Source of the DNA: a bacterium
GTDB lineage: Bacteria; UBA8248
NCBI GenBank assembly: GCA_963692865.2
Contig: OY843592.1
Coordinates: forward strand, 1,152,001-1,216,000
Length of the DNA stretch: 64,000 nt
Direction: 5' to 3'
Position numbers and translations under genes: made by a program. Of the stretch, positions 5,252 to 59,578 are shown one piece after another. The notes beneath the pieces are model-generated. The model saw nothing but the letters and a program-made list of their open reading frames with translations, was not told the origin of the DNA and did not search any database. The first letter of the stretch is position 1. Every line of letters begins with the position of its first letter.

Positions 5252-5545
5252 TCACGCCGGTTGCGGCTCGTAGCGATCTACCTCGATTTCATCCTCGCGC
5301 TCCAGCGCCCGCGCGATGTCGTAGGCCGACTGAAGGCGTATCCAGGTCTCCGTCGTCGAGCCGAAGGCCTTGGCGAGTCGTATCGCCATCTCGCTCGACA
5401 TCCGCGCTCGCCCGTTCACCAGGTTCGAGAGCGCCTGGCGGCTGACGCCCAGCGCCTTGGCGCCTTCGGTCACGCTCAAGCCCAGCGGCTCCAGACACGA
5501 GACGCGCACGACCTTGCCGGGATGCGGCGGATTCTTCATGGGCAT
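5252..5545 (-). CDS. higA: HigA-family antitoxin (HTH addiction module antidote)
   Basis: PPHPG..., [34 protein letters not shown]. Confidence 0.92.
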
Positions 5546-5563
5546 GGTGGGCCCCTCCTTGGT

Positions 5564-5842
5564 TCAGTGATAGTCGATGAGTTCAACGTCGTAGACGTCC
5601 TCGCCTTCGAAGCGGAAAATGATGCGCCAGTTCGCGTTCACGGTGACCGACCAATAGCCTCTCCATTCGCCCTTTAGTTGGTGGAGCCGATAGTAGGGCA
5701 TTCGCAATGCCTCCGGCGACAAGGCGACATCGAGTTGGGCCAGAATCACCTCCACTCGTTCCCGCAGGTCGGGATGGATGCGGCTGGGGTCGCCGCGTTG
5801 GTATAAGCGTCTGAGGCCGCGATGCCGAAAACTCTTTATCAT
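5564..5842 (-). CDS. higB: HigB-family (RelE superfamily) toxin
   Basis: MIKSFRHRGL..., LHQLKG...YWSVTVNANWRIIFRF...VELIDYH; toxin upstream of antitoxin; true start ATG 5842 rather than track start 5986. Confidence 0.92.
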   Translation of the reverse strand: MIKSFRHRGLRRLYQRGDPSRIHPDLRERVEVILAQLDVALSPEALRMPYYRLHQLKGEWRGYWSVTVNANWRIIFRFEGEDVYDVELIDYH

Positions 5843-5976
5843 CCGTGAAATGTAATGTGTCAATCGACGCTTGTCAACCGCGTATCCGAGCCGGAGCATC
5901 CTTCGCCCGGTTTCGGGAGGAGCGGCCTGTCTTACAGGTTGGAGGAGAGCACGTAGACTTGGCGCCTGCGCGCCGC

Positions 5977-6008
5977 AAATGCGCACCCCGGTTCATTGAC
6001 GAATCCAT
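5977..6008 (+). repeat. 32-bp direct repeat, copy 2
   Basis: Identical to 5051-5082. Confidence 0.9.
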
Positions 6009-6066
6009 GAGTGTGGGATGATGGCCGGGTTTGATGCGAGTGATTGTTTCCGGCGTAATGAGGCGC

Positions 6067-6162
6067 ATGATGGTTGAGTACGACAATTATCGGATGTCTC
6101 TCAAGCGTCTCGAGGAGCAATACGAAAATTACATCGAACTCGACGAGGCGTTGCCCCGATAA
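6067..6162 (+). pseudogene. Truncated N-terminus of a probable HEPN (HI0074-like nucleotidyltransferase substrate-binding) gene
   Basis: Short ORF MMVEYDNYRMSLKRLEEQYENYIELDEALPR* with GAGG upstream; resembles N-termini of that family from memory; overlaps the helicase 3' end. Confidence 0.4.
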
Positions 6163-9100
6163 GCCGTCGCCGAGGCGGCTGCCTGAGCAAAAGGCTTGCC
6201 GTTTGATTGTTCTTTCGAGTTATCGCGGGTGTATTTGCACGTGGGATAATTCGAGCATCCTATAAAAGGGCCGTATCGACCGTTTTTTGCCTCTAGCGAG
6301 CCGTCGCATTCGGGGCAGGCCTCGATGAACTTGCCGCACTCTCGGCAGCGGAAGGCTTCGGCCGCCTTGACTGGTAATCCCTTCCCGCAAACCGGACATG
6401 GCTGCTGTGTATGCCTGCAATGAGGGTAGTTCGAACAGCCGTAGAAGATGCCGCCGTTCTGTCTGTTTTGGCGTTGCTCGATCCGTCCCTCGATACATGC
6501 CGGGCAGGGGACGTCGTAATGCGGCATCCAGCCGAAGACGGTGACGTCGTATTCCCCGTCGAACAGCTCCATGTCAAAGGGAGAAGTCGGACCGCCCTCG
6601 GCAAGAAGAAAGACGCGGCGTCTGGCGCGGGTGATGGCGACGTAGAACAGGCGCCGCTCCTCGGCATTCGGGTAATCTTCGGGCACAGAGAGAACCAGAT
6701 CGAGCAACGGGTCGTCTTCGATCTCAGTGGGGAAGCCGTACCTCCCCGAACACAGGTCGAGCAGCACGACGTAATCCGCTTCGCGTCCCTTGGCGCTGTG
6801 CACGGTTTTGTAGGATATCCCGAGTCCGGCATACTTCCTTGCCAGAGCAGATATGTTCTGCGGCTTCGTGTGTTTGTAGCGGCCCAACAACAGCACGCTC
6901 GATTTCCCCTCAAACTTCGCGGCGTCCTCTGTGATCTTGTCTAGCGCCTCATTCAACAGGGGAAGTCCTTGCTCGCCGGAAAGACCTACATGGACGCACG
7001 GCCTGTCCGCCCGGTGCACCGAACCGACCCTCTTGGATATCTGCGCAGGGTTGCGCAGAACGAATTCGGTGGCGACGGAGGCGATGCGGTCGGCGCAGCG
7101 GAAGGTCGTCTCCAGAGGGATGCGTTCACAGTCGCCGAAGTGCTCTATGAACTCCCGCATGATTCCGATGTCCGAGCCTGTGAAGCGGTATATCGCCTGC
7201 CAGTCATCCCCGACGGCGAACAGCCGGGCGCCCGGCGACTTCTCCAAAAGCGCCTTCAACAACCTTGCCCTGCCCTGCGAGATGTCCTGGAACTCATCAA
7301 CCAGGATGTAACCGAAAGGGCTGCTATAGCGGCCGGTTTCCACATGCTCCGTCGCTCTGTCAATCATGTCGTGGAAGTCGATCTCTTCTGATCGGGAGAG
7401 AGTTTCCTCGTAGCGCTCGAAGGCCGGCTGGAACAGGGTGAGGAAGGCTTCGGCCCGCAAGCGGTCCGGATGGTCGGCGGCTTGCCGGGCGACTTCCGGG
7501 AAACTCAGCCATGCGCCCTTGAAGTGCTCGAGAAAGGTCGCCAGCAGACGCATGAACGGATTGATTCGTCCCTGCCGATTCAGCATGGCGAAGACCTCGT
7601 CACGGGGAATGGGGGACAAGGTTACGCCGTAGGCGAGTAGCCTCCCGGCCAGATTTTCGGTCAATCTACCGGCGGCGCGCTCATAGCTGAAGGTCTCGAT
7701 CAAGATAGTGCCGTGTTCGGCGTGGGTCCGGCGTTTCCACGCCATCGATTCGAGATACTCTTTCTGCGGAACGAACGGAGCGGTCTTCCCCTCGATGTCG
7801 ATCCCGAAAGGCTCGATACAGATACCTTCTTGCAGTTTCTCCCTAAGTTTCGTTTTTTCGATCTCGATCCCCAAGTGCTCAATGTAGATACCGGCTTCGG
7901 TCAGATAGAAATCCGGCCTGTACGGCCCCTTCTCCGGCGTAGCCGTGTCGTGCTCATACTTGCGTTCGTACTCGTAGGGCACGCCGTTGAGGTAGAGGAA
8001 GTTGGCGATCTCACATTCCTCGTAGCTGGGAACCTTCTCGCCCTTGAGCGAGCGGATCTCATGCCGCCGAATATAGTCCCGGTACTCACTATAGCTCTCG
8101 AATTCGTGCTCGCTCCTGTAGGGCGCGAACTGAGACTGAAACCATTTCAGCAAATCTTCATAGTATTTTTGTTCCGCAGCCAAGTCAGTGACGATGGTCT
8201 TGAGCAGGTCGAGTAGCGCCTTTTCGTCTTCAGCGGCCTTGGCCAAGCCCGGGCGCCTGCCTTCGGCTTCACCGATGATCTTCATACCCAGGCCGTGGAA
8301 CGTCCTGACGGTCATGTCGGCCGCCGCTTCGTCGCTGAGACGCTTGCGGATCCGTTCTTCCATCTCTTTCTGCGCGTCTTTAGCGAACGCCAGGAGCAGC
8401 AATTCCGAGGGACGCCGGTAGCCTCTATGGAGAAGCCAGCCTGCCTTGGCCACGATCACAGAGGTCTTGCCGCTGCCGGCAGCGGCGACCACCAGATTCC
8501 GGTCATCGTCTACGACGACCGCCCGGCGCTGCTCCTCGGTAAGTGGCCGATCCTCGATCCGGTCGAAGAACTCCCGCAACCGGAACATTTCATTTTCGAC
8601 GAAAGCTTTGTTCGCTTTCTCCCGTATAGGCTCTGGGTCTTTTAGAAAATCCTGTATCCTTTTCAGCAGCCGGATTTCCGGAGCATTCGACAGCACCTTC
8701 GGCCAGCGCTCCGCGAATTGATCCGCCGCCTTCTTTGCGTTGCGCCTCAGTTTACGGAAGACGCTGCGCGCCATGTACTCTGGCGGACTCACAAGTTGTA
8801 GCAGGCGCTCATCTACCGAATGGAGAGCCGCGATCTCTTCCACCAGCGTCCTGCGCCACCAATGGATTCTGTTGGTCTCCAATACTTCGACGAACGCCCA
8901 AGCGTCGTCCTGCGTCAGCCCCGACACGGTTGCGCGCCCTGTCGAATGATGGAAGTGGATGCCGCACCAGCGTAGCCCGATTTCAACTTTGGCCGACACG
9001 ATGTCCTCAATAGGAATTTCCGTGTATCGGGACCCGTGCATTGGTTTCAGGGAGTTCGCGCTCACGAATGCAGCCTTGGCGTCTCGTGGTCGCAAGACCG

Positions 9101-9635
9101 CGAACAGGAAAGAAGCTAGTCCGGTTCGTTCGACCCTGAAACGACCTGCGGCCTCTGAGGCATTCATGGGTCCGGCTTCTCGACCGGAGCGGAGGGTTTG
9201 GTCCCGGTCACGTCCAAAAACGCTTCGACCTCGCTGCGGAAGGCCAGCCCCAGAGGTTTTTCTTGACCCAAGAGATATCACGTAAGTGACGATTCTCGTG
9301 AGAAGGGACGCCCCAATGCCGAATATGGAAGTCAGAAACGCCGTTTTCAGACCGGCGAGAAGCGGCGGAACGCTGCTTTCTATATCATTGGCGTCAAAGT
9401 CTTTCAGGCCGAGAGCGATACCGATGAACGTTCCGAGAATTCCGAGAACGGTCGTCGCCGATTGCGAAAATCTGAGGGCGTTTCTTTTCCAGAAAGCGAA
9501 TACGAGGCAGATTGCGAAACATGCGAGTATCACCACGCAAAAGACTTGCGTTAGCCGTTCGGGATCGCTTGCGGGAGAAACGACGGGTTGAAAAAGGGCG
9601 TATAGAGACGAAAAAACAGGGCGCAGATAGTCCAC
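6129..9635 (-). CDS. UvrD/helicase IV-like SF1 helicase with N-terminal MotA/ZorA-like transmembrane segment, internal nuclease-like insert and C-terminal topoisomerase-type C4 zinc ribbons
   Basis: AAAGSGKT, LVDEFQD, VGDDWQAIYRF, TVHSAKGREAD, EERRLFYVAITRAR; C-terminal CP.C...FYGCSNYP.C repeats; N-terminal LGILGTFIGI..GL..FD...LLAGLKTAFLTSIFG. Confidence 0.85.
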   Translation of the reverse strand: MDYLRPVFSSLYALFQPVVSPASDPERLTQVFCVVILACFAICLVFAFWKRNALRFSQSATTVLGILGTFIGIALGLKDFDANDIESSVPPLLAGLKTAFLTSIFGIGASLLTRIVTYVISLGSRKTSGAGLPQRGRSVFGRDRDQTLRSGREAGPMNASEAAGRFRVERTGLASFLFAVLRPRDAKAAFVSANSLKPMHGSRYTEIPIEDIVSAKVEIGLRWCGIHFHHSTGRATVSGLTQDDAWAFVEVLETNRIHWWRRTLVEEIAALHSVDERLLQLVSPPEYMARSVFRKLRRNAKKAADQFAERWPKVLSNAPEIRLLKRIQDFLKDPEPIREKANKAFVENEMFRLREFFDRIEDRPLTEEQRRAVVVDDDRNLVVAAAGSGKTSVIVAKAGWLLHRGYRRPSELLLLAFAKDAQKEMEERIRKRLSDEAAADMTVRTFHGLGMKIIGEAEGRRPGLAKAAEDEKALLDLLKTIVTDLAAEQKYYEDLLKWFQSQFAPYRSEHEFESYSEYRDYIRRHEIRSLKGEKVPSYEECEIANFLYLNGVPYEYERKYEHDTATPEKGPYRPDFYLTEAGIYIEHLGIEIEKTKLREKLQEGICIEPFGIDIEGKTAPFVPQKEYLESMAWKRRTHAEHGTILIETFSYERAAGRLTENLAGRLLAYGVTLSPIPRDEVFAMLNRQGRINPFMRLLATFLEHFKGAWLSFPEVARQAADHPDRLRAEAFLTLFQPAFERYEETLSRSEEIDFHDMIDRATEHVETGRYSSPFGYILVDEFQDISQGRARLLKALLEKSPGARLFAVGDDWQAIYRFTGSDIGIMREFIEHFGDCERIPLETTFRCADRIASVATEFVLRNPAQISKRVGSVHRADRPCVHVGLSGEQGLPLLNEALDKITEDAAKFEGKSSVLLLGRYKHTKPQNISALARKYAGLGISYKTVHSAKGREADYVVLLDLCSGRYGFPTEIEDDPLLDLVLSVPEDYPNAEERRLFYVAITRARRRVFLLAEGGPTSPFDMELFDGEYDVTVFGWMPHYDVPCPACIEGRIEQRQNRQNGGIFYGCSNYPHCRHTQQPCPVCGKGLPVKAAEAFRCRECGKFIEACPECDGSLEAKNGRYGPFIGCSNYPTCKYTRDNSKEQSNGKPFAQAAASATAYRGNASSSSM

Positions 9636-9749
9636 GGGGGTTGGGTCCTCAGTGGTTCCTCGGTTTTCAAGACAACCGCTCTATGCTAGCACCCGCGCCG
9701 GGGGTTTGTCGATTTTTTCCGGTTCTCGTTTTTCACGCCCATGCGGTTA

Positions 9750-10056
9750 GGGGTTGTTGAAAAAGTTCCTCGATGCGGGAAAACCACCGTCATTCCGGCG
9801 AAAGCCGGAATCCATTTTATGATTTTTGCTTTCGTTTTCGCATTTGATTCCGACTCGCGGGTGGGCGCGCCGCGCACGAATCCGGAACGGATGAGGTGGA
9901 TATATATGGGGGCGTCCGTATCTTCCCCGGCCGGGAGCGAGGACGTCCGGACAAAAGGCCAAAGACAAAGGTGAAAATGAATCCCGGCTGAAGGCCGGAA
10001 TGACGAGCAAAGGCGAAGGTCAATACCAAGCAAAGCGAGGGTTTTTCAACACCCCC
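9750..10056. mobile_element. MITE-like element with GGGGTTGTTGAAAAA termini carrying GTCATTCCGGC-type palindromes
   Basis: Inverted termini at 9750 and 10042-10056; flanks GGTTA/GGATA (4/5 match); its left ~65 bp recur inverted at ~16596-16660. Confidence 0.7.
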
Positions 10057-10327
10057 GGATATGTCGTGTTCGTGGCGGGGGAGGGAGGTGGGGTGCAGGA
10101 TTGCTCCACCAGGACGGTGTGTTGCTCCGTCGGCATAGCAAGAAGCCGCGACCGTATTTTCTCATCAAAATTCAGGGGAATGCTATATTAAAGGCGCATC
10201 GTCTCTAAAAGACCAATTCTTTTGGGCTCAAGACTCCAAATTAAGCCGATGCCGCAATTTGGCGGTTATAAGCTGCGCGAATCGCTTTTTCGAGTTCTTT
10301 CTCGAGACGTTCCATGGAGCCGAAAAT

Positions 10328-11320
10328 CTAAAAAAGCGCGCCTTGCGCGTTCGCAGCGGCGGCGATTGCCGTATCCGGGCCGATGTCGGGCAGGTCGCTC
10401 TCGAAAGGGTGTCCGTTTTGCCATCCGGTCTGCCCCGTGGAGCGAAATCGTTCAAGACGCCGAATCGTAATTTCCGCATAGACCGGGTCGACGTCCATGG
10501 TGAAACACTTTCGGTCGAGAATTTCACTCGCGAGCAGGGTTGTTCCCGAGTGCGCGAAAAAATCGACCACCAGATCATCGGGCGATGAACTGGCCCGAAC
10601 AATTCTGTCGATACATTTGATGGGCTTTTGGGCGTAACACCCGGAGACGTTCTCCTGCATCCGATAAAATATCTGTTGAATATCGACCCAGACGTTACCC
10701 GCCCTGATTGTATCGGACCGGCTTCTCTCCAGGTTTTCCGTTCTCTTGCCGTTCACTTTCTTGTAATATCCGCGCAGGATTTTGGGAATGTCCGTATATT
10801 CTGCATCGACCCAAAAATCAGGGTTTCCTTTCGTGTAATAGAGCAACTCCTGCCGAACCGCCATCCAGTTCTTTTGCGTGCCGTATCCCCGTTGGTTTCT
10901 CATCGTGATCATGCTTCTTGAGCGAAAAGGTTGTTCTCGCATCATGAGCGCGAAATCGGGCAATGGTTGGAAACCGTTGTTCTGGTCGGCTCCGAGCCAG
11001 ACGTAAAGCGATGAATCCGGGGCCATGGAATAATGTGAGTGAGACACCCATTTTCGGCACCATTCGATGAATTCCGTTACTTCCTTTTGCTCGAACGCGG
11101 CGAGATTGTAAGGCGGATCATGAATCGCCAGTTTCGCCCGCTCTCCGTCCATGATGCTCCGGGTGTCTTCGCCGCTGGAGGCGTCGAGACACCCGACTCG
11201 ATGGCCTCGCGCGTCGTCGATCCATATCTCTCCCGGCCGAAGGCGGCAATACGGCAGTAACTTGTTTCGCAGTTCAGGCGATGCGTCCAGTCTCGGGAGA
11301 GGGTTGTTTTTCATGGTCAC
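10328..11320 (-). CDS. Site-specific DNA methyltransferase (N6-A/N4-C, beta class), orphan
   Basis: DPPY catalytic motif precedes QKP and DFFAHSGTT SAM-binding motif. Confidence 0.9.
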   Translation of the reverse strand: MTMKNNPLPRLDASPELRNKLLPYCRLRPGEIWIDDARGHRVGCLDASSGEDTRSIMDGERAKLAIHDPPYNLAAFEQKEVTEFIEWCRKWVSHSHYSMAPDSSLYVWLGADQNNGFQPLPDFALMMREQPFRSRSMITMRNQRGYGTQKNWMAVRQELLYYTKGNPDFWVDAEYTDIPKILRGYYKKVNGKRTENLERSRSDTIRAGNVWVDIQQIFYRMQENVSGCYAQKPIKCIDRIVRASSSPDDLVVDFFAHSGTTLLASEILDRKCFTMDVDPVYAEITIRRLERFRSTGQTGWQNGHPFESDLPDIGPDTAIAAAANAQGALF

Positions 11321-11499
11321 GCCTTCAAATCCTTGTGCTGAAGCCTTCGTCCGGCCATTGTATAAGCCGAGGCCTGCATCTGTTCTTTGGCGTCCGTCGG
11401 GCGGAGATTGCGGTCGGTTCGAACACGCCGACCCCGGCTCTGCTTGCTTTCGCTTTTATTATGCTGATGAGGGTTGGTTTGTCAAGCCCCCGCCTCGCC

Positions 11500-12597
11500 T
11501 CACGAAGCGGCGGACTCCCCCTCCGAGTCGGCGTAGAGCCGGAAGTAGGCGAGGGCGGCGTAGGCCTTGGCCTCGACGGCGTCGCCCGTGAGCGACAGCT
11601 TGAAGTGGTTGATTCCCTTGTAGAGGATGGACATGCCCTTTTCCTCGAAAAGCCGCTCGACTCCCGGAAAGGCGCGCAGGCCGTCGCCCTTCTCCGGCAG
11701 GCACCATCCCATCTCTTCGAGGTAGTCCACGACGGGTCGCCAGGCGTTGCGCCCCGAGGTCAGCCAGTAGTCGAGGTTCGAGGGTTTCCTCGGCCTGTAC
11801 ATCTCGAGGCCCAGGCGCGGCCCCGGGCCGTTCGCGCCCACGTCCAGCGCCAGCCGGAAGACCGGCGTCACGTCGCGCATCTCCTCGAGAACGTCCATCG
11901 CCTTGTCGATGGAGCCGTTCCACTTGAGCCGCTTCAGGAACGCCGGGACGTTGCGCAGTTTCACCCCGTCCACGATGAGGCGGATGAGGCGCGGCTCGCG
12001 CTCCGGCACGGCGCCGATCTGATCCACCACGCCGGTGCGGGGCAGGGCGGCGCACACGCGCTCCACGGCGCGTCGCTCCTCCTCGTTCTCCTCCCAGCCC
12101 GCGGCGCTCGCCATGGCGGCGGCCAGGCGGTCGGGGGTTCGCAGGCCCGCGGCGTCTTCGGCCAGTTCGGATTGAGGCCGCAGCGCCAGGAACACGCCCG
12201 GAGACGGGCGGGCGTCCGGGGGAACCTCCGCGATGTCGTATTCGAGCATCGACGCCCTGAACCAGCCGGCGAGGGAGGGTTCGGAGGCGCAGCCCGCGTC
12301 GTTCATGCGGGCGTAGGCCCGGCCGAGGGCCGCCGCCGCGGAATCCGGCTCCGCGGCCTCGCCCAGGCGGACGTAATACTCCATGGAGGGACGCCCCGGC
12401 GCGACCGAGACGAAATAATCGGCGGCGGGCGCGGGTTCTCCCAGCCGGAACTCGAAAGCCGCGTAATTCAGGGTCAGCCAACTCGGGAGTTCGCCGACGC
12501 GCTCCAGCAGGCGGTCCCACCACGGGCCGTCGAGCAGGGAGGGTGGAACGAAGCGGCGCAACCTGGGAAAGACATCCCCAAAATTCTCAGACATCAT
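11500..12597 (-). CDS. Putative RiPP maturase, ABBA-type prenyltransferase-like (function inferred)
   Basis: Directly downstream of the NHLP precursor; motifs FEFRLG..ADY, LEYD, LALDV...PRLGLE, NHFKLSL....EAKAY; start taken at MMSENF (ORF open to 12774). Confidence 0.55.
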   Translation of the reverse strand: MMSENFGDVFPRLRRFVPPSLLDGPWWDRLLERVGELPSWLTLNYAAFEFRLGEPAPAADYFVSVAPGRPSMEYYVRLGEAAEPDSAAAALGRAYARMNDAGCASEPSLAGWFRASMLEYDIAEVPPDARPSPGVFLALRPQSELAEDAAGLRTPDRLAAAMASAAGWEENEEERRAVERVCAALPRTGVVDQIGAVPEREPRLIRLIVDGVKLRNVPAFLKRLKWNGSIDKAMDVLEEMRDVTPVFRLALDVGANGPGPRLGLEMYRPRKPSNLDYWLTSGRNAWRPVVDYLEEMGWCLPEKGDGLRAFPGVERLFEEKGMSILYKGINHFKLSLTGDAVEAKAYAALAYFRLYADSEGESAAS

Positions 12598-12793
12598 CGA
12601 ACCCTGTTTGCGATTGGGCGCATATGCCGGGACGAACGCGGCGGCGAGCGGCGCTCTGCTCCCCGGCCCCCTGTAGCGAAGCGGGCCGCGGAGGCGTTCG
12701 AACACGCGATACATCCCCCTCGAACCAACCCCTTCCCGGGGTTTTCCGCAGATAGAGCCCCGCCAGACTGTCATGCTCTTTTGATATAACGTA

Positions 12794-13081
12794 TCAGATG
12801 TTTTGGTTCAAGTTGTTCCAGGCGTTGACGAAGTCCAAAGGCGCCTGCGTTCCGGCCACGATGTCGTTCAAATCGGACTCGCTCAACTCGGCCGGGGGCA
12901 ATACGAGGTTGATGCTCATGACGTTGTCCGTGTGCACGCCGATCTTGAACCCCTCGGGAATGGTGATCCCCAGTTCCCGCTCGATGGTGGTCTTGGGGTT
13001 GGTCAGCAATTCGGTGCGGAACGCCGGGTTCTCGCTCGCCTTTTTGATGATCTCCTCGCGCATTTCCTGTACGGTTTTCAC
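12794..13081 (-). CDS. NHLP (nitrile hydratase-like leader) RiPP precursor peptide
   Basis: IIKKASENPAFRTELLTNPK..IERELG..IP...I.VH......LVLP..ELSESDLNDIVAG leader, then 18-aa core TQAPLDFVNAWNNLNQNI; GTG start at 13081 inferred. Confidence 0.88.
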   Translation of the reverse strand: MKTVQEMREEIIKKASENPAFRTELLTNPKTTIERELGITIPEGFKIGVHTDNVMSINLVLPPAELSESDLNDIVAGTQAPLDFVNAWNNLNQNI

Positions 13082-13487
13082 TGCCTCGGGTTCTCCGGGT
13101 GATATGTAGGGCCCGCCGAAAAGCGGGCAACGCTCCCCTGCTCGCCCCGGCCGCCGGCGCAACGGGCGCCGCCTCCGGGAGGGATTGGCTGCTTCGTCAT
13201 CCCTCCGCTCGGGCGAGAGAAGAGGACATGCTCAAAAAGTATATGCGCCGTGATTGCCGCGTCAACAAAATTATGGCCTTTCGCCGAACGAAAGTGCGAA
13301 AAATTCGATTTTTCGCACCAAACGCCCCGACCCCTGGAATTCCTGCGAACCGCCGGCGTCCTTCGCGCGCGCTTTTTTTCTTGAGGGGCCGGGAGTAGTG
13401 TGAGAAACTTGCCCTTTCGCCTCGGGGGACTCGAGTGCTCGTTCCCGTTTCACGAAAAGCCCGCTTAACGGCCAGGGAGGATGCGAC

Positions 13488-15260
13488 ATGATGGACAGGG
13501 GTTCCCGGCGGCACGCGAGCGCCGACGTACGCTACGAAGCCGACGAAAAACCGCCGCCCCTGCTCGCGTTCGGCCTCGGCCTGCAACTCGCCGTCCTCTG
13601 CGTGAGCGGCATCGTGTTCACACCCTTGATCGTGGTTCGGGCCGCCGGTGGAACTGAGGATTATCTCTCGTGGGCCGTGTTCGCCGCTTTGGCGATCTGC
13701 GGCGCGACCACGATGCTCCAGGCGGTCCGGATCGGCCGCTTCGGCGCGGGCTACGTGCTCATCATGGGCACGTCGGGCGCCTTCATCGCGGTCTGCATCG
13801 CGGCGCTCGCAAAGGGAGGGCCGGGGATGCTCGCCACGCTGGTCCTCGCCTCCTCGCTTTTCCAGTTCGCGCTCTCCGAACGCCTCTCGCTGTTCAGGCG
13901 GGTGCTGACGCCGACCGTCGCAGGCACCGTCATCATGCTGATAGCGGTGACGGTGATGCCCATCGTCTTCAAGATGCTCGGGGACGTGCCGAAGGGCGCT
14001 CCCCCGCTCGCCGCCCCGCTGAGCGCCGTGACGGCGGTGGTCGTCATCGTCGGCATCGCGCTCAAGGCGACGGGGGCGCTGCGCCTGTGGGCGCCCGTCG
14101 TCGGCGTGGTCGCGGGTTCGCTCGTAGGCCTCTATTACGGCATCTACGACACGGCCCGCGTCGCCGGGGCTTCGTGGATAGGCCTTCCCCACGGCGCGTG
14201 GCCGGGCCTGGATTTGAGCTTCGGGCCCGTTTTCTGGACGCTTTTGCCGGGGTTCATTTTCGTGACCCTGATCGGCGCCATCGAAACCGTGGGCGACGGC
14301 GCCGCCATCCAGCGCGTGTCCTGGCGGCGGCCCCGGGCGGTGGATTTCAAGGCGGTGCAGGGCGCGGTGGCCGCCGACGGGGTGGGCAACCTGCTCTCGG
14401 GCCTTCTGGCGACGGTGCCGAACACGACCTATTCGACGAGCGTGTCCGTCACCGAACTCACCGGCGTCGGCGCGCGCAGCGTCGGCGTCGCCGCCGGGTC
14501 GGCGTTCCTCGCCCTGGCGTTTCTCCCCAAGCTGGTCGCCGTGGTGCTGGCGATACCGGCCCCGGTCGCCTCGGCCTACATCACCGTGCTGCTGGCGATG
14601 CTCTTCGTTGTCGGCATGCGGATGGTCGTCCAGGACGGAATCGACTACCGCAAGGGGCTGGTGGCGGGCGTCGGTTTCTGGGCGGGCGTCGGCTTTCAGA
14701 ACGGCGTCATATATCCCGAGTACTTCTCCACGTTCGCGGGCGGCCTCTTGAGCAACGGCATGACGGCCGGCGGTCTCGTCGCCATGATCATGACGCTGTT
14801 CGTCGAACTCACCGAACCGCGCCGCAGACGGCTCGAGGCGGCGTTCGACCTATCGGCCCTGCCGAAGATCCGGGAGTTTCTCGGCGAGTTCGCCTCCGCC
14901 GCCGGCTGGGACGAGGTGATGGCGCATCGCCTCGACGCCGCGGGCGAGGAGACGCTGCTGACGCTTCTGCGCCGCGATGAAGACGGCGAGGACGACGAAC
15001 GGCGGCGGCTGCTCGTGGTGGCGCACAAGGAAGACGGCGGCGCGGTGATCGAGTTCGTCGCCGCCGGCGGCGAGGAGAACCTCCAGGACCGGCTCACGCT
15101 GCTCGGCGAACAAACCGCCGGCGCGCCGATCGAGCGGGAAGTATCGCTCCGGCTGCTGCGCCACCTCGCCACCTCGGTCCGCCACCAGCAGTACCGCGAC
15201 ACGGATATCGTGACCGTCCGCGTGGATGTCTCGGGCGCGCCGCGCGGCGAGGGGAGTTGA
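13488..15260 (+). CDS. NCS2 (xanthine/uracil permease) family transporter fused to C-terminal degenerate RsbW-like domain
   Basis: LGLQ, MGTSGAF, IETVGD, ADGVGN..SG....PNTTYS NCS2 signatures; hydrophilic ~145-aa tail aligns by eye with the RsbW at 19235. Confidence 0.85.
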   Translation: MMDRGSRRHASADVRYEADEKPPPLLAFGLGLQLAVLCVSGIVFTPLIVVRAAGGTEDYLSWAVFAALAICGATTMLQAVRIGRFGAGYVLIMGTSGAFIAVCIAALAKGGPGMLATLVLASSLFQFALSERLSLFRRVLTPTVAGTVIMLIAVTVMPIVFKMLGDVPKGAPPLAAPLSAVTAVVVIVGIALKATGALRLWAPVVGVVAGSLVGLYYGIYDTARVAGASWIGLPHGAWPGLDLSFGPVFWTLLPGFIFVTLIGAIETVGDGAAIQRVSWRRPRAVDFKAVQGAVAADGVGNLLSGLLATVPNTTYSTSVSVTELTGVGARSVGVAAGSAFLALAFLPKLVAVVLAIPAPVASAYITVLLAMLFVVGMRMVVQDGIDYRKGLVAGVGFWAGVGFQNGVIYPEYFSTFAGGLLSNGMTAGGLVAMIMTLFVELTEPRRRRLEAAFDLSALPKIREFLGEFASAAGWDEVMAHRLDAAGEETLLTLLRRDEDGEDDERRRLLVVAHKEDGGAVIEFVAAGGEENLQDRLTLLGEQTAGAPIEREVSLRLLRHLATSVRHQQYRDTDIVTVRVDVSGAPRGEGS

Positions 15261-15339
15261 GGAGTCCGGGCGCGCTCAAGGGGTGGCTCCTGCTTCTCGC
15301 CGTTCGCGTCAAACCCGCGTTCATCAGCGTTTTTTCCAT

Positions 15340-16660
15340 AACCCCGCATACAGGGCTGTTGAAAACCCCCTGATTTCGTGATTCGGCGTATGCGGCCGAC
15401 CGGGGGATGATTCCCGATTGACAAGGGGTCCCCCGTAGGGGCCGTATACCATGCGACCCGCTTTCCGACCGGGAAGGGCCGCATACGGGGTTGTTGAAAA
15501 ACCTCCAGGAAGCGATTTTGGGTTGCGCGCTCGCTTTTGAAGTTCACTCCCCCCTTGAGGGGGTTGTTGAAAAAGCCTTCCCCACCTCATCCTGAGTAGC
15601 GGCGAAGCCGCGTATCGAAGGATGCCCGCTCGCCCTTCGATACGCCGCCTCCGGCGGCTACTCAGGGTGAGGAAAAAGGCGTCGGCGGTTTGCAGGCAAG
15701 GGTTTTTCAAAAGCCCCTTGAGGGGGAGTCGGTGAGGTGAGGGGGTTTTTCCCCGAAACCGAACCGGTGGGGGGAGCTTTTTCAGTGGCATGTCTCCCCA
15801 CCGATTCAGCCTTCGCACAAACCGCTCGGCTTCATCGTCGGGCTTTCCCCTCGGGAAGCCCGACCCTCAAGGGGCTGTTGAAAAAGCCGGAGAGAGACAA
15901 TTTGTTTGTAGGTGACAACCCCTCCTCGGGGTTGTCCCACACATATCATGCGACCCTGATTTTCGCCCTCCACAAGGCGGGCCGCATGATATGTCAGACA
16001 TATATGTCTGACCTACAAGAACCTTTCCTCCCCGGTCGCGTAAAACACTCGTTCATCAGGACTTTTTCAACAACCCCGTATGCGGCCCCTACACCAGGCT
16101 TACGACCAGAACGACGTGCGGGGTGAGGACGTGAAAGAGACGAAAAGGCGAAGTCAAAATGGATTCCGTCGAACACTCCCGCCCCGGTCGCGTCCGACGC
16201 CGGAACGACGGATAAAACCGCGTTAGCCGTAGGGACAGGCCTCCGCGCCTGTCCTGATGAAACGCAACAACGCGGATGGATATCCCGAATACGGGCGGCC
16301 ACGGAGGGCCGCCCCTACGAACCCCCCGACCCCCCTTGTCGAGGGGGCTTTTTCGACAGTTCCTTGCGGGCCGGTCGGGATTCCCCCGCAGTGGGCCGTT
16401 TTCATAAACGGCCCACGTTCGCGAACGTGGGTTGTTCCCAAGAACGACCCACTACAAAACCATCGTCCCCTTTTGCCTGTGCTCGTCATTCCGGCGGAAG
16501 CCGGAATCCATTTGCGGGTGCGGGTGAATGAAAGGCGGCGTTTCATTCCCCGCCGATGCGCGGGAACCCCGACGAAAGGCAAAAGGCGTAAAAACGGATT
16601 CCGGCTTTCGCCGGAGTGACGGTGGTTTTCCCGCGTCGAGGAGACTTTTTCAACAGCCCC
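15340..16660. repeat. Cluster of nested MITE-like elements and REP-like palindromes
   Basis: Left termini at 15352, 15487, 15560, 15871; right termini ending 15717, 16077, 16660; GTAGGGG-type, CTCAGGGTGA-type and GTCATTCCGGC-type hairpins. Confidence 0.85.
15560..15717. mobile_element. 158-bp MITE-like element with TTGAG target-site duplication
   Basis: TTGAG at 15555-15559 and 15718-15722; removal restores hairpin CACTCCCCCCTTGAGGGGGAGTC, seen intact (inverted) at ~34349-34372. Confidence 0.85.
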
Positions 16661-16717
16661 GGGAAAGGAGCATTCGTATCGAAGGGCGGGGGAGGCCGCT
16701 CATCCATCCATGAAACC

Positions 16718-17398
16718 CTATCTGCTCCTCCTCGGGTGGTGGTCGATGCCGCGAAAGGCGTCGATGAAGGCGGTGATGCGCTCCTCGTCGAACGCCTCCA
16801 GCGTGTCTATCTTGCCCCAGGCGGTGAGGGCGATCCTGTGCTTCATGGCGGGGTAGGGGGCGAGGACGACGAACTTCGGGTAGCGGCGCACGACGGATTC
16901 GAGTTTCTTCACGAGTTCGGGGCAATCGGAGCAGCCGTATTGGACGAGCACGCCGCCGTCTTCGAGGTTGTGCACCTGAAATCCCCTGTCGATCGGCCTC
17001 CGGTGCACGCCCCAGGGGACGATGGTCGGGTAGTGGGGCCCCGAGGTGGGGGGATCCGTGTTGTAGGAGACGGCGCCGCTCGTGCCGGCGCGGATGTGGC
17101 GGTTGCCGAGCGAGGGCACGTCGCGCGCCTTGTGCGCGGACGCGCCCGTCAGATAGTAGACGCCGAGGAGGACCACGGCGATGACGCCCGCCCACACGAG
17201 CGGGGCCGTGCGGATTTTCCCGGAGCCCGCGGCCTTCGACGGACTCGGTGCGGCGCGCCCGGCGGAGCGGGGACGTTTCTTTTTCCCCTTGGATTTTCGG
17301 GACAAGGCGGCGCCTTTCTCTTTGGAGCGGCGGTCGGCGGCTTCTGCGCGCCCGGGGGGCCGCCGCGACAGGATACGCAAAGGCGGGCGCCCGGACAA
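16718..17398 (-). CDS. DUF3105-like membrane-anchored protein
   Basis: YNTDPPTSGPHY, VHNLEDGGVLVQYGCSDC, IALTAWG; basic N-terminus plus one TM helix; real start may be TTG 17305. Confidence 0.8.
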   Translation of the reverse strand: MSGRPPLRILSRRPPGRAEAADRRSKEKGAALSRKSKGKKKRPRSAGRAAPSPSKAAGSGKIRTAPLVWAGVIAVVLLGVYYLTGASAHKARDVPSLGNRHIRAGTSGAVSYNTDPPTSGPHYPTIVPWGVHRRPIDRGFQVHNLEDGGVLVQYGCSDCPELVKKLESVVRRYPKFVVLAPYPAMKHRIALTAWGKIDTLEAFDEERITAFIDAFRGIDHHPRRSR

Positions 17399-17568
17399 GC
17401 GGGAGGCGGATGAAATTTTTGCAATCCGCTTTCATGCGCCGCGGGACCGGCCATGCGCCCGGCTTGCGGAATACGGGCGAAATGAGTTGCGCGGGGGGTG
17501 AGTCTTTTATACATTGAGCAGGGATTTGCCGTTGCCCGAGCGGGCGCGGCGCGAGCGACGAGGAGACG

Positions 17569-18018
17569 GTGAAGAACATGGATACCTGTCGGATACTCGT
17601 GGTGGACGACGAACCCGATCTCGAAGATCTCGTGAACCAGCGCATGCGGCGCGATATCCGCAGCGGCCGCTATTCGTTCGTCTTCGCCCGCAACGGGGTG
17701 GAGGCGCTCGAACGCCTGAACGGGGACGATGAAATCGACATCGTCCTCACGGACATCAACATGCCGGAGATGGACGGCCTCACGCTGCTCGATCAAATCC
17801 CGGCGTACAACCCGAAGCTGCGCTGCGTGATCGTCTCCGCCTACGGGGACATGAAGAACATCCGCACGGCGATGAACCGGGGCGCGTTCGATTTCCTCAA
17901 CAAGCCGATTGATTTCGATGACTTGCGGCAGACCATCGAGAGGTCCGTGAAGCATCTCGCGACGATGCGGGAGGCCTTCGAGGCGCGCGACAGAATGCTG
18001 GCCGAAGGGAGAGGATGA
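17569..18018 (+). CDS. Single-domain response regulator (REC)
   Basis: ILVVDDE, LTDINMPEMDG, VSAYGD, GAFDFLNKP. Confidence 0.92.
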   Translation: MKNMDTCRILVVDDEPDLEDLVNQRMRRDIRSGRYSFVFARNGVEALERLNGDDEIDIVLTDINMPEMDGLTLLDQIPAYNPKLRCVIVSAYGDMKNIRTAMNRGAFDFLNKPIDFDDLRQTIERSVKHLATMREAFEARDRMLAEGRG

Positions 18019-19238
18019 TGGAGGAGCCGCACAGGATACTCGTGGTGGACGACGAGCCCGATCTGGAGCAGCTCGTGCTGCAGCGCATGCGGCGCGAGAT
18101 CCGGCGCGGCCGCTATTCGTTCGTCTTCGCCCGCAACGGGGTGGAGGCGCTCCAGCGTCTGCGCGAGTGCGCCGATAACGGAAAAGAGCGGATCGACATG
18201 GTGCTCACGGACATCAACATGCCGGAGATGGACGGCCTCACGCTGCTCGATCAAATCCCCTCGGTCGACACCAACGTGCGCTCCGTGGTCGTCTCAGCCT
18301 ACGGGGACATGAAGAACATCCGCACGGCGATGAACCGGGGCGCGTTCGACTTCGTCACCAAGCCGATCGATTTCGAGGATTTGCGGATCACCATAGAGCG
18401 GACCCTGGAGCACCTCGCCATGCTGCGCGAGGCTCTCGATGCGCGCGACAGGCTGGTCGCGCTGAGGAGCGACCTCTCCCTGGCCAGCAAGATGCAGCAA
18501 TCGATCCTGCCGACGAAATTCCCCGAAAGCCCCCACTACGAGATATTCGGGGGCATGGAGCCCGCCCGAGACGTGGGGGGCGATTTTTTTGACATCATCG
18601 AATTGGCCGACGGCCGCCTCGCCATGACGGTCGCCGACGTTTCGGGCAAGGGGGTGCCCGCCGCCCTGTTCATGATGTCGAGCCGCACGCTGCTCAACAG
18701 CGTCGCCGTTGCGCGCGCCCATCCGGGCGACGTGCTCGGCGAGGTCAACCGTATGCTCCAGCCCGGCGACGTGCTGAGCGAGGTGAACCGCCTGCTCCAG
18801 GAGAACAACGACGCCGCGATGTTCGTCACCGTCTTCTTCGCCATTTTCGACGCCGCGACCGGCGAGATCATCTACTCGAACGGCGGGCACAATCCCCCCG
18901 TCGTCCTCCATGCCGACGGGTCATCGAGCCTGCTTTCCCAGGATCCGGGGATCGCCCTCGGGATCGCGCCCGAATTCAGCTACGACATATATAAAGCGAC
19001 TATCGCGCTCGGCGACGCCCTCGTTCTCTACACCGACGGCGTGACGGAGGCGGAGAACGAGAAGACCGAGCAGTTCGGCCTCGACCGCCTCCGGGGGATT
19101 CTCGGAGGTTCGCCGCCGGCCTCCGCCCGGGAGATCAACGAGAAAGTTTTCGAGGCGGTCAAGGAGTTCGCGGGCACTGCGCCCCAGTTCGACGACGTCA
19201 CCTGCCTGACCCTTTATCGTCGCGGAGGGGGGGAATGA
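18015..19238 (+). CDS. REC-PP2C (SpoIIE/RsbU/RsbP-like) phosphatase
   Basis: N-terminal REC; VGGDFFD, ADVSGKGVPAA, NGGHNPP, YTDGVTEA, QFDDVT. Confidence 0.93.
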   Translation: MMEEPHRILVVDDEPDLEQLVLQRMRREIRRGRYSFVFARNGVEALQRLRECADNGKERIDMVLTDINMPEMDGLTLLDQIPSVDTNVRSVVVSAYGDMKNIRTAMNRGAFDFVTKPIDFEDLRITIERTLEHLAMLREALDARDRLVALRSDLSLASKMQQSILPTKFPESPHYEIFGGMEPARDVGGDFFDIIELADGRLAMTVADVSGKGVPAALFMMSSRTLLNSVAVARAHPGDVLGEVNRMLQPGDVLSEVNRLLQENNDAAMFVTVFFAIFDAATGEIIYSNGGHNPPVVLHADGSSSLLSQDPGIALGIAPEFSYDIYKATIALGDALVLYTDGVTEAENEKTEQFGLDRLRGILGGSPPASAREINEKVFEAVKEFAGTAPQFDDVTCLTLYRRGGGE

Positions 19239-19654
19239 GCGCGAAACTATCCTTGACGATGAGGTTCGAAGCCTCCGACCTCCCGCAAATCCAATCCGCC
19301 ATCGGGGAGTTCAGCCGGGAGCAGGACTGGCCGCCCGACATCGAATTCCAGGTCGACCTCGTGCTCGAAGAACTGGTGCTCAACGTCGTGCACCACGGCA
19401 GCGACCGCGGAGAGGGTGAAATCACCATCGAAATCTTCTCGGACGCGGACGCGGTGATCATCGAGATCATCGACGACGGCCGGCCGTTCGACCCCCTGAC
19501 CGACGCGCCCGATCCCGACACCGAATCGGCCATCGAAGACCGCCCCGTGGGCGGGCTCGGCATCCATCTGGTGCGGACGATGATGGACGAAGTGGCCTAT
19601 CGGCGGGAGGAGAACAAGAACCACATTCGCCTCGTCAAGCGGAGGAGTGAATGA
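19235..19654 (+). CDS. RsbW-like anti-sigma factor Ser/Thr kinase
   Basis: EELVLNVVHHG (N-box), DDGRPFDP, GGLGIHLVRTMMD. Confidence 0.92.
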   Translation: MSAKLSLTMRFEASDLPQIQSAIGEFSREQDWPPDIEFQVDLVLEELVLNVVHHGSDRGEGEITIEIFSDADAVIIEIIDDGRPFDPLTDAPDPDTESAIEDRPVGGLGIHLVRTMMDEVAYRREENKNHIRLVKRRSE

Positions 19655-20844
19655 GGCTCCCGCTCCGGACCCGCCGGGCGTTTATCCTGCTTGCCGCCGC
19701 GATAATCTGCTCGGCGTCGGAAGCGCGGGCGGCCGCGCCCGGGGTTTCCCCCCGGCGGATTCTTTTCGGCCAGTCCGCCGCTTTCACCGGTCCCGCCAGG
19801 GCGCTGGGCGAGGAGATGCGGCTCGGGGTCGAAGCCGCCTTTCGCGCGGAGAACGCGCGCGGCGGCGTTCACGGGCGCCGGCTCGAACTCACCTCCCTCG
19901 ACGATGCGTATGAACCCGAAGCCGCCATCCTGAACACCCGCCGGTTGATAGAACAGAACAAGGTTTTCGCCCTCATCGGGGCCGTCGGAACGCCCACCTC
20001 GCGCTCGGCCACGCCGGTCGCCGCAAATGCGGGCGTCCCCTACATCGCGCCCTTCACCGGCGCCGCCTTCCTGCGCGACCCCAAATGGAAGAATATCATC
20101 AACCTGCGCGCCTCCTACTTCCAGGAGACCGAGGAGATGGTGAATCGGCTGATCAGGGACTTGGGCGTCAAGAAGATCGCCGTGCTCTACCAGGACGATT
20201 CTTTCGGCTTGGCGGGCTACCGGGGCGTTCGCCGCGCCCTTGAGCGGCGAAACCTGAAACCGGCGGTCACCGGGGTGTATCCGCGGAATACGACGGCGGT
20301 CAAAACGGCCCTGCTCGACATCAGGCGCGCGAAACCCGCAGCGGTGATCCTGGTGGGGGCTTACAAGCCGGTCGCCGCCTTCATCGCCTGGGCGCGCCAT
20401 ACGGGTTTCAATCCGATTTTCGTGACGCTCTCCTTCGTGGGCAGCAATGCGCTCGTGCGTGAGCTCGGCCCCGCCGGGGTCGGAATCTACGTCACCCAGG
20501 TGGTTCCGTTTCCGACGACGGAAAATCTTGAGATCGCAGCGGACTTCAGGCGGGACCTGGAGGCTCACAAGCCCGGCGCGGCCCCCAGCTTCGTCTCCTT
20601 CGAGGGCTACATGGCCGGCAGACTGGCCATCCGCGCCCTCGAGTTGTGCGGGCGCGAGCCCGATCGCGACTGTCTTCTGAAGAGCCTGCGACGCGCGGCC
20701 GCCATCGACCTCGGCGGATTCAAGCTCCGCTACGGCAAGGATGACAACCAGGGCTCGGACGCCGTTTTCCTCACCGTCGTCGGCGAGGGCGGCCGCTACA
20801 TTCCGACCGAAAAAATACGGCGGCCGGAGCAGGAGCAACGATGA
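19651..20844 (+). CDS. Periplasmic binding protein, LivJ/branched-chain type
   Basis: Signal peptide; GQSAAFTGP, GGVHGR, LDDAYEP, GAVGTPT, RASYFQE, YQDDSFG. Confidence 0.9.
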   Translation: MRLPLRTRRAFILLAAAIICSASEARAAAPGVSPRRILFGQSAAFTGPARALGEEMRLGVEAAFRAENARGGVHGRRLELTSLDDAYEPEAAILNTRRLIEQNKVFALIGAVGTPTSRSATPVAANAGVPYIAPFTGAAFLRDPKWKNIINLRASYFQETEEMVNRLIRDLGVKKIAVLYQDDSFGLAGYRGVRRALERRNLKPAVTGVYPRNTTAVKTALLDIRRAKPAAVILVGAYKPVAAFIAWARHTGFNPIFVTLSFVGSNALVRELGPAGVGIYVTQVVPFPTTENLEIAADFRRDLEAHKPGAAPSFVSFEGYMAGRLAIRALELCGREPDRDCLLKSLRRAAAIDLGGFKLRYGKDDNQGSDAVFLTVVGEGGRYIPTEKIRRPEQEQR

Positions 20845-23033: not shown

Positions 23034-23137
23034 GCGGCCTCGGCCGCCCGCTCAGGATATCCGGGAAAATTTCGGGAGAGATGAAGGATTGCAGGGCGGC
23101 GCGCGAAGGCGACGAAGAAGGCTTTGCTTTCGACCCG

Positions 23138-23476
23138 TCAGCCTGCGGTCGCGGCGAGCGCCTCCGCCTTCGAGCCGTGGATCTGTATGATTCGGTCGAA
23201 ACCGGATATCTCGAAAACCTCGCGCGTCAGTTCACCGAGCGCGTACAGTGCGAACATCGTATTGTTTTGGCTGAGTTGCTTGGCGACCAGCAGGACGGCG
23301 CGGAGGCCGGCGCTGCTGATATACGAGACACCCTCGAAATTGACGATGACGGCGCGGTCGCCGTCGCTGATGACGTTCTTTATCGTACTTTCGAATTCAG
23401 GAGCGGTGGCGCCGTCGATGCGGCCATCAACCTGCACGACCAAGGTACCGTTTTCCTGCTCAGTCTTGATTTCCAT
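23138..23476 (-). CDS. STAS-domain anti-sigma factor antagonist (RsbV/SpoIIAA-like)
   Basis: GRID, VSYISSAGLR (phosphoacceptor Ser), VFEISGF; start at MEIKTE. Confidence 0.92.
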   Translation of the reverse strand: MEIKTEQENGTLVVQVDGRIDGATAPEFESTIKNVISDGDRAVIVNFEGVSYISSAGLRAVLLVAKQLSQNNTMFALYALGELTREVFEISGFDRIIQIHGSKAEALAATAG

Positions 23477-23950
23477 GCCCGGCTCTGCCTCCCACAACGG
23501 CCTGAGATATTTTCCGTTATCGGCCCGATACCACGAGAGTGTACGCCCAGGCCGTAAATTTACTCCGCCTAGCGTAATACATTATATCACACGAATGCAA
23601 CGACATTCCCCGCGTTCGCGCAAAAACAACGTAGTCATAATGACCACTTCTTCGAGAAAGACGCTAGCCAGCATATACAATTTCTCCCCTTTTGGCAACT
23701 TATGGGGTCGTTTTCGGTTCAATATCATTTTTACCGCCCCGCGCAGGAAGTTCCTGACGGCCCGGTCAGTTTGCTCCCATTTCGTTGACAATCTGCCGGG
23801 AATCAGTGAAACTTGGCGAAATGCGACACGACGAATGACGAGGTTTTCCGTTGCGCTAGGTTTGCTCCTTGGGGCGGGACGGGACGCTCGGGCAGGCCTC
23901 TCCATATTCTGCCCAGGTCATTTTTTTGTTCTACCCCTGTACAAGGAGGC

Positions 23951-25408: not shown

Positions 25409-25615
25409 TGGCCTCGGCGCCCACCCGGGCCCGATCTCCCCGCATCCCCCTCGCAGCCCACTTCAAAAAACTTGCCTCCACGCGCTCTCTGGCGTAATCT
25501 GAACGTATTCGAGTTTCTTGCGACGCTATCACGCTCGCTTTTCCGCTTCCGGAAAGGAAGCGGCGTTTCCCGCTCCCGCCCCGATGAAGCGGGATTCGGC
25601 TCAGGAGGCCCCACG

Positions 25616-59206: not shown

Positions 59207-59453
59207 ATCCTCCTTTTCTAGCCCGGCATCCTAACGATTATAGCCTGCCGACGCCAGTGGTTATTCACGCCCGATATGAACGGAGCAAATGCGGAAGCGC
59301 CGGTTTTTCCGGTATGGGTGGTCGCCAACGCGCCCCTGCGCGCCTTCCCCGAGTTTTGGGATCGACCCTCAAAGGGGAGTATTTTTCGCCGACGACCGGA
59401 GAGGGATTTTGCTCTTGTAGGGGCGGACCCGCGTGTCCGCCCGGCGTCGTTTC

Positions 59454-59578
59454 CGACCGGGGAGGGATCGTTTTCGGCGTTTTTGGATGCTTTCGGGTGA
59501 AAATTCACGTCGCTTGGGCGGATTAAGCGGCGATTCAGTCAAAAAATGAGAAAAATCATCTCCCGTGATTCATCTTTG
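59454..59578 (+). repeat. ~130-bp diverged direct repeat, copy 2
   Basis: Aligns with 57158-57296. Confidence 0.85.

Follow-up and report, generated by a model that had tools for sequence, protein, structure and literature searches.

We analyzed a stretch of 64,000 nucleotides (hereafter the window; contig OY843592.1 of assembly GCA_963692865.2, positions 1,152,001 to 1,216,000) from a bacterium of the UBA8248 lineage. Our subject is a pair of genes within it: a precursor of the NHLP family of peptides that are ribosomally synthesized and modified after translation (RiPPs), followed by a gene for a 365-residue protein (Table 1). An earlier note on this DNA had read the pair as a stand-alone locus for a Trp-prenylated lipopeptide. 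We favor, on balance, a reading in which the pair is a satellite locus for leader-guided Trp prenylation, with its product exported in trans. Taken by its parts, prenyltransferase activity of the enzyme on this precursor is quite likely; given such activity, W88 of the precursor would very probably be the modified site, judging from its conservation; and export in trans, read from gene distribution, seems about as likely as the activity. These three judgments are not fully independent of each other. In the proposed mechanism, the enzyme would bind the NHLP leader and its L(X)4L motif, an allylic diphosphate would be ionized in the barrel, and the indole of W88 would be alkylated, with E49 likely holding the indole NH, D60 likely binding Mg2+, and basic residues and tyrosines likely binding the diphosphate. 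An NHLP-type C39/ABC exporter encoded elsewhere in the genome would cleave the precursor at Ala-Gly and carry a linear, prenylated 18-mer out of the cell. The dependence on the leader is proposed because of the analogy with MppC, a peptide Trp prenyltransferase described below, and donors from C5 upward are plausible because the genome has two polyprenyl synthetase genes. Once exported, the product would be an amphipathic lipopeptide, and its likeliest role that of a signal or of an agent active on membranes.

The precursor scored 62.1 bits against TIGR03793 (curated cut-off 50.9), which confirms the NHLP leader named in the earlier note. Its leader ends in ...ELSESDLNDIVAG, with the Ala-Gly at residues 76-77, and when we compared 22 precursors we found L71 and G77 to be invariant and L66 nearly so. 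The same Ala-Gly site occurs in a second precursor of this genome, which has an LCCCW core, and both leaders carry L(X)4L. The predicted core, TQAPLDFVNAWNNLNQNI, has 18 residues with one Trp, five Asn, no Cys and no Ser, as had been described, and one Thr besides. W88 is present in all 15 orthologues, so that the core Trp for which the earlier note had suggested a conservation check is indeed conserved, and a second Trp, at position 81, occurs in only 9 of the 15. By the ratio of non-synonymous to synonymous substitution rates (dN/dS) both genes are real, because over 15 orthologous pairs the enzyme has a value of 0.24 and the leader one of 0.21. Within the core the ratio is 0.51 for residues 78-86 and 0.11 for A87-N94, a stretch that is nearly invariant among the orthologues and in which the Asn residues flanking W88 equal W88 in invariance. 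The hydrophobic moment exceeded that of composition shuffles (p<0.05) in 11 of 14 orthologous cores, and the core likely folds as an amphipathic helix.

The enzyme proved, as the earlier note had it, to be without a known family. The protein, whose C-terminal region contains ...NHFKLSLTGDAVEAKAY..., had no match in Pfam, NCBIfam or PDB sequences. No named family was reached through an alignment of 88 sequences (Pfam, NCBIfam and PDB) or of 115 sequences (PDB only), and the 88 aligned relatives gave only weak, scattered matches in the three databases. PF11991 (Trp_DMAT) matched neither the protein nor the 88 relatives; a Trp_DMAT search of the enzyme's own genome also returned nothing, which is uninformative as control genomes were silent too. 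A homologue search returned 98 proteins, of which the named ones were all 'hypothetical', and a profile search returned 3,830 representatives at E ≤0.001 and 2,861 at E ≤1e-10; going by these profile counts, the enzyme belongs to a large unannotated family. In a language-model atlas it scored 0.95-0.96 against unnamed clusters and 0.89 against both a Trp_DMAT cluster, which is a lead only, and a cluster with DUF5838 in 12% of its members; its recognition value was below the level typical of known families. Longer fused forms were not found among 8,000 scored candidates of 731-2085 residues (weak evidence), and one 597-residue protein in which the family is fused to a 2OG-Fe(II) oxygenase domain came to light outside this search.

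An AlphaFold2 model built on the 88-sequence alignment had a mean per-residue confidence (pLDDT) of 91.9 and a predicted template modelling score (pTM) of 0.90, and it consists of five helix-helix-strand-strand repeats with an extra hairpin strand at 312-318. All 39 matches listed by Foldseek and all 50 listed by VIA were ABBA aromatic prenyltransferases. The best Foldseek match was TleC (E 8.9e-7, TM 0.52); in VIA, indole enzymes stood at the top, with MpnD first (Z 16.3, root-mean-square deviation 4.6, 302 residues aligned), followed by FgaPT2 (Z 16.1), DMATS1 and CymD (both 15.9), and with NphB at 13.5. The ABBA barrel proposed in the earlier note is thus borne out by the model, in which the resemblance to DMATS is one of fold only. 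The note's choice of the cyanobactin F family (KgpF) as the parallel needs correction: among the matches listed, DMATS-type indole prenyltransferases come nearest by fold, and of the characterized peptide enzymes the leader-dependent MppC and NctPC are the closest, whereas the cyanobactin F family is leader-independent. Chains of the F family were not among the fold matches listed, which leaves room for kinship, and neither single nor profile queries gave a PDB sequence match to this family (PagF, KgpF).

ABBA enzymes hold the diphosphate through basic residues and tyrosines, Asp62 of NphB holds Mg2+, and Glu102 of FtmPT1 acts on the indole nitrogen (PMC7973389, accessible in part). Among 115 diverse relatives of our enzyme (mean column identity 22%), we found E49 in 113, D60 in 113, D121 in 114, R200 in 114, R206 in 105, H331 in 112, K333 in 114, K344 in 111 and Y346 in 114. 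Because of their places on strands 1 and 2 of the model, we take E49 to be the likely indole-binding Glu and D60 the likely counterpart of the NphB Asp.

The neighbors of homologous genes bear out the association with NHLP or Nif11 precursors that the earlier note had made a requirement of its reading. A genome scan gave 13 loci, of which 12 hold close orthologues (82-87% identity) with a precursor directly upstream in every case; five of these 12 are labelled Nitrospinota or Nitrospinaceae. Among 14 metagenome loci (partly redundant), 13 have an NHLP gene, and in 12 the core contains Trp (NGLISSWARA, F/YGAFWG and FGGWSDMSDW), the exceptions being one locus with a Tyr core 5.4 kb off and one 3.6-kb contig with none. 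Paralogues in two genomes of the genus adjoin cores such as EWVWH, FYHEDGTPWV, DMDWCTSSGAV, IYY, NLYY and YRLDIF. Cultured bacteria from outside sponges also have the family beside precursors that end in Trp. On a plasmid of Pseudanabaena galeata, WP_281009877.1 (L098:7992-9785), for which 2OG-Fe(II) oxygenase is the only annotation, carries the family's domain at its N-terminus (E 2e-58, all 12 key residues kept) in fusion with the oxygenase domain, and it lies in a LanM/Nif11 cluster whose Nif11 precursor ends in Trp. Plasmid pAB510a of Azospirillum sp. B510 (L099, ~1.256-1.265 Mb) carries a family member near four NHLP genes, three of which have long hydrophobic cores ending in Trp. In Gammaproteobacteria the family was matched in 8 of 400 scored genomes, and one of five loci inspected with wide flanks has a Trp-core NHLP gene together with a cyclase-like gene. 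We counted 12 distinct core types near homologues, with Trp in 8 (0.8 expected from proteome frequency) and Trp or Tyr in all 12; this count omits two degenerate leader fragments without a clear core and takes proximity as pairing.

Members of the family also stand beside Tyr-rich cores. One genome of the genus, G023 (L061-L066; 9% contamination), has 39 NHLP matches and 10 enzyme-family matches, several with internal stops, and its cores are Tyr- or Trp-rich and lie near P450 or flavin oxidase genes. A divergent enzyme clade (L060:13986-15376 and L061:5256-6748) lies immediately next to cores whose last two residues are Tyr-Tyr, and a P450 gene is close by; from this position its members are candidate Tyr prenyltransferases.

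The same genome as the window contains a complete srp cluster (L001:7983-19041 and L002:1104-8625; C1 ~188-203.6 kb), which encodes the LCCCW precursor, a YcaO protein, a desaturase-like fusion, a leader-fused protein, two ABC exporters and a Trp halogenase. Within it lies a 33% identical paralogue of our enzyme (C1:188373-189401, 372 residues), whose gene converges on that of the LCCCW precursor. Residues E49, D60, D121, R200, R206, H331, K333, K344 and Y346 are all retained in the paralogue, which suggests that the srp product may be prenylated. The leader-fused protein (L001:14307-15620, minus strand; 437 residues) begins with an NHLP-like domain, while its C-terminal domain has no Pfam match; the protein looks terpene-cyclase-like. 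The organism is likely a sponge symbiont because the srp family has been described as ubiquitous in sponge microbiomes (bioRxiv 2023.06.09.544420, accessible in part).

The srp cluster also holds the only C39 match of the genome (C1:200795, catalytic Cys motif intact), 0.96 Mb from the pair, as part of an NHLP-type C39/ABC export system at C1:196-201 kb. We followed the pair and the exporter through 51 genomes of the phylum, individual members of which carry labels such as G021, G026 or G030; this set probably overlaps with the 13-locus genome scan. Of the 23 genomes of this genus, 16 carry the enzyme family, which none of the 28 others has, and an NHLP gene above the cut-off occurs in the identical 16. 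A C39 domain was found in 15 of the 16 genomes with the pair vs one of the seven without it; this one (G028) lacks the pair and has a diverged NHLP-like gene beside its exporter. The locus would then not be self-sufficient, because the srp cluster of its genome provides an NHLP-type C39 exporter and the genus profile ties the pair to one, and the claim of a stand-alone locus is not upheld. YcaO was matched in none of five genomes that have the orphan enzyme and lack the srp paralogue, two of which are fragmented and uninformative. One genome, G026 (2 contigs, 95% complete), has three intact exporter genes (L094:5074-11798) between remnants of 42 and 118 codons from the halogenase and the leader-fusion gene, so its srp tailoring genes appear from these remnants to have been deleted. 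Two others, G030 and G035 (one contig each; 94% and 96% complete), have a different NHLP exporter operon (L095:7128-13472 and L096:7295-13639, respectively) with a C39-ABC subunit that is 44% identical and no precursor detected within 20 kb; all three subunits of G030, which the scan covered, exceed the cut-offs of TIGR03794, TIGR03796 and TIGR03797. In these three near-complete genomes our precursor is the sole NHLP gene above the cut-off. The simplest reading of these gene contents is that the pair would depend on an exporter in trans.

A 267-residue frame at C1:1072076-1072471 (L074, L075) contains two weak NHLP-like segments. Two such sub-cut-off matches are present in all 23 genus genomes, and the frame is probably a nitrile-hydratase-like housekeeping gene because they occur also where the pair is missing.

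A number of points weigh against satellite Trp prenylation with export in trans. A fold in common does not establish function, solved ABBA enzymes share 7-15% identity with ours and reach TM-scores of only about 0.5, and the residue roles were assigned from strand position, not from a residue-level superposition. MppC prefers a macrocyclized core (PMC12715784), whereas the core here has no Cys to cyclize. Four of the 12 core types have Tyr and no Trp, with cognate pairing assumed from proximity, and of the five gammaproteobacterial loci two lie in YcaO/exporter clusters in which no precursor was detected and two are distant matches with no clear RiPP context. With regard to export, G021 has the pair and no C39 match (350 contigs, 92% complete), the genus genomes are kin and their counts not independent, and the genome's own exporter narrowly misses the NCBIfam cut-offs of TIGR03796/TIGR03797 (846 bits where 853 are required, and 656 where 709 are), with an adaptor gene of only 183 residues. 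In G026, G030 and G035, exporter clients were sought among NHLP genes only.

The alternative that survives best, though we regard it as unlikely, is that Trp88 is prenylated and the pair truly stands alone, its leader being cut by a housekeeping protease or kept, with the link to the exporter reflecting shared inheritance. This would fit the absence of an exporter from the window, the case of G021, and the derivation of every genome counted from one genus; the mpp cluster, to which MppC belongs, reportedly has no transporter peptidase domain, and its peptidase is believed to be a separate one (PMC11791876, accessible in part). Shared inheritance is harder to reconcile with the exporter genes that stay intact beside deleted srp genes in G026, with the different exporter of G030 and G035, and with the finding that 6 of the 7 genus genomes without the pair are also without C39.

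Rather unlikely, too, is that the barrel acts on the peptide with another chemistry or at another site, for example by alkylation of the N-terminus or of Phe84 or through a non-prenyl reaction. The occurrence of Trp or Tyr in every one of the 12 core types, conserved basic and Tyr residues typical of diphosphate binding, and homologues that adjoin terpene-cyclase-like genes (presumably so, with no Pfam match) in srp-type and other clusters all speak against it, even though identity to every solved ABBA enzyme is very low, the conserved acids (E49, D60, E119, D121 and D252) exceed what a metal-independent DMATS needs, and the Asn residues around W88 are as invariant as W88 itself.

We consider it quite improbable that the precursor is a second srp substrate, further brominated or terpene-cyclized by srp enzymes in trans. 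The genome's srp cluster does have a Trp halogenase, a YcaO protein and a leader-fused cyclase-like gene, and the two leaders have L(X)4L and a final Ala-Gly in common. However, SrpI reportedly acts only on a C-terminal Trp (PMC10286304, accessible in part), the core has no Cys or Ser, and the pair persists in G026, G030 and G035, which have neither YcaO nor the srp prenyltransferase-like gene. About equally improbable is that the enzyme prenylates a small molecule (free Trp or indole) next to a precursor with a separate role, since, although the nearest solved folds (FgaPT2, DMATS1, CymD and MpnD) take small indoles as substrates, all 12 close loci have the precursor directly upstream, NHLP genes accompany 13 of 14 metagenome loci, and enzyme and over-cut-off NHLP gene share the same 16 of 23 genus genomes.

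The chemistry and leader logic of the preferred reading, leader-guided Trp prenylation, are of a known kind, because MppC and NctPC already carry out ABBA-type Trp prenylation. To our knowledge, leader-guided ABBA prenylation of a peptide Trp has been shown for few enzymes only, all of them cyanobacterial. It is plausible by profile that our enzyme family includes MppC or NctPC, because the family profile matches a protein of a cyanobacterial LanM/Nif11 cluster. MppC of Moorena producens, an ABBA enzyme, geranylates C5 of the Trp in a lanthionine-cyclized core, requires the whole Nif11 leader, and turns over the precursor but not free Trp or indole (PMC12715784). MppC and its precursor MppE resemble the pair in combining a soluble ABBA-type prenyltransferase for a core Trp, of about the same size class, with a long leader that has L(X)4L; unlike MppE, with its Nif11 leader, lanthionine-cyclized heptapeptide core and large cluster, the precursor here has an NHLP leader, a linear Cys-free 18-mer and no other tailoring gene adjacent. 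NctPC, described in the accessible part of PMC13290415 as a fusion of an ABBA enzyme with a cyclase by which Trp is geranylgeranylated, is alike in that it prenylates a peptide Trp, has an ABBA barrel and is little similar to cyanobactin enzymes; it differs through the terpene cyclase fusion, by which a cyclized geranylgeranyl group is added, whereas our enzyme has a single domain and no cyclase nearby.

The srp system (SrpE/SrpC/SrpI) shares an NHLP precursor with a Trp core (PMC10858898, PMC10286304 and bioRxiv 2023.06.09.544420, each accessible in part), but its LCCCW core comes with YcaO and a halogenase/brominase, whereas the pair, 0.96 Mb away, is Cys-free and has neither gene. The indole prenyltransferases (MpnD, TleC, FgaPT2, CymD and PriB) and NphB have the same ten-stranded ABBA barrel (Z 13-16), yet they act on small-molecule substrates and show 6-15% identity with no sequence-level match. 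Cyanobactin F enzymes belong with PatA/PatG proteases and a cassette precursor, unlike the NHLP precursor here, for which no such protease was found in the window. As in the ComQ/ComX system, a precursor and one Trp prenyltransferase would give a linear prenylated peptide. This holds for PalQ/PalX as well (PMC10853753, PMC13290415), and in both systems the enzyme has an isoprenyl-diphosphate-synthase fold and not an ABBA barrel. What distinguishes our locus is the NHLP leader, the linear, helical core with an internal Trp, and the probable use of a distant exporter. In the open literature we found no description of a two-gene NHLP and ABBA locus with a linear core, although the original srp and NctPC papers or a 2026 review of peptide prenyltransferases may show one, and none of a prenyltransferase in srp clusters, although the original srp paper or its supplements may. 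In a 2025 review of sponge peptides, the accessible part of which treats the srp product as cryptic and calls its ecological role unclear, the word 'prenyl' does not occur (PMC12426817).

The locus would represent a minimal version of this chemistry, with one enzyme and one linear NHLP core, and an entry to a large unannotated family. If the proposed mechanism is correct, it would offer an enzyme with which a Trp inside a linear peptide could be lipidated and would assign a function to the paralogue in the srp cluster, which bears on the cryptic chemistry of sponge symbionts. Export in trans would matter for genome mining because satellite pairs lack the genes on which cluster finders rely. 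We further speculate, as a doubtful extension, that the pair is a genus-conserved, ComX-like pheromone system made from other parts, in which a Trp-prenylated amphipathic helix borrows whichever NHLP exporter the genome holds and is sensed by the divergent block of genes that runs from an NCS2 permease to a STAS protein. It would mean a peptide signalling circuit in likely sponge symbionts, with the srp paralogue being a prenyltransferase and the abundant, cryptic srp product a lipopeptide.

Table 1. Coordinates of the precursor-enzyme pair and adjoining features, in positions of the window.
Feature	Position	Strand	Basis or remark
N6/N4 DNA methyltransferase gene	10328-11320		downstream of enzyme
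365-residue ABBA-barrel protein, predicted peptide Trp prenyltransferase	11500..12597	-	model, fold searches, conserved residues
NHLP-family RiPP precursor gene, 95 residues, GTG start	12794..13081	-	TIGR03793 match
Predicted 18-residue core TQAPLDFVNAWNNLNQNI, likely amphipathic helix	12797..12850	-	conservation and hydrophobic moment
Trp88 codon, predicted prenyl acceptor	12818..12820	-	TGG in 15/15 orthologues
Leader, residues 1-77, L(X)4L motif (L66, L71), predicted Ala-Gly cleavage site	12851..13081	-	
Sigma-70-like promoter match TTGACG-16-TATACT upstream of precursor	13238..13265	-	consensus scan, pattern match only

The two genes are co-oriented and separated by 196 bases, and the RNA structure of this spacer is nothing unusual (z -0.34; covariation term -0.55). 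A scan for the sigma-70 consensus found two sites vs a shuffle mean of 0.2; a site outside Table 1 (11458-11485, minus strand) is an 11/12 match just beyond the stop codon of the enzyme gene and is aimed into the DNA methyltransferase gene. In one metatranscriptome run (X1, share 0.08), a 419-base contig that is ~95% alike spans the whole precursor gene and two short contigs fall on the enzyme gene, which is weak evidence of expression, as there was no silent control stretch, DNA carry-over is possible, and the other four runs are possibly the source of the assembly.

Genes in the window were called with a codon-score script and the proteins scanned against Pfam. Among the 6 + 42 called proteins we found no YcaO, LanM, radical SAM, C39 or ABC exporter family, in agreement with the earlier note, and no cyanobactin-type PatA/PatG protease family among those scanned; eight of the 42 had no Pfam family at E 1e-10. 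Also as stated there, the pair is divergent from an NCS2 and partner-switching region: the NCS2 permease gene starts at 13488 in the opposite orientation, with the partner-switching block beyond it. This gene is divergently upstream in 13 of 15 orthologous loci (at one of these as a 60-residue piece only), and the remaining two contigs end just upstream of the precursor. The shared neighborhood reflects inheritance within one genus and does not imply a functional link. The block (13488-23497), which is kept beside the pair in the genus, encodes the NCS2 permease with a C-terminal extension of ~150 residues, a DUF3105 protein, a response regulator, a response-regulator/PP2C protein, an anti-sigma kinase, a periplasmic binding protein, a HAMP histidine kinase and a STAS protein.

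The downstream flank is variable among orthologous loci. In the window it comprises (5252-11320) genes for a HigA-like antitoxin, a UvrD/HelD-like helicase and the N6/N4 DNA methyltransferase, whose presence differs among relatives; the helicase has 1168 residues, with an N-terminal MotA/ExbB-like stretch and C-terminal zinc ribbons. Farther away, a region of lower guanine-cytosine content (57436-62871) with genes for DUF4276 and an AAA ATPase, RloB and an AAA ATPase, and DUF4062 is likely a defence island. A gene on the plus strand at 25472-31156 encodes a protein of 1895 residues with Cache domains and adjoins a pyridoxal-dependent decarboxylase gene.

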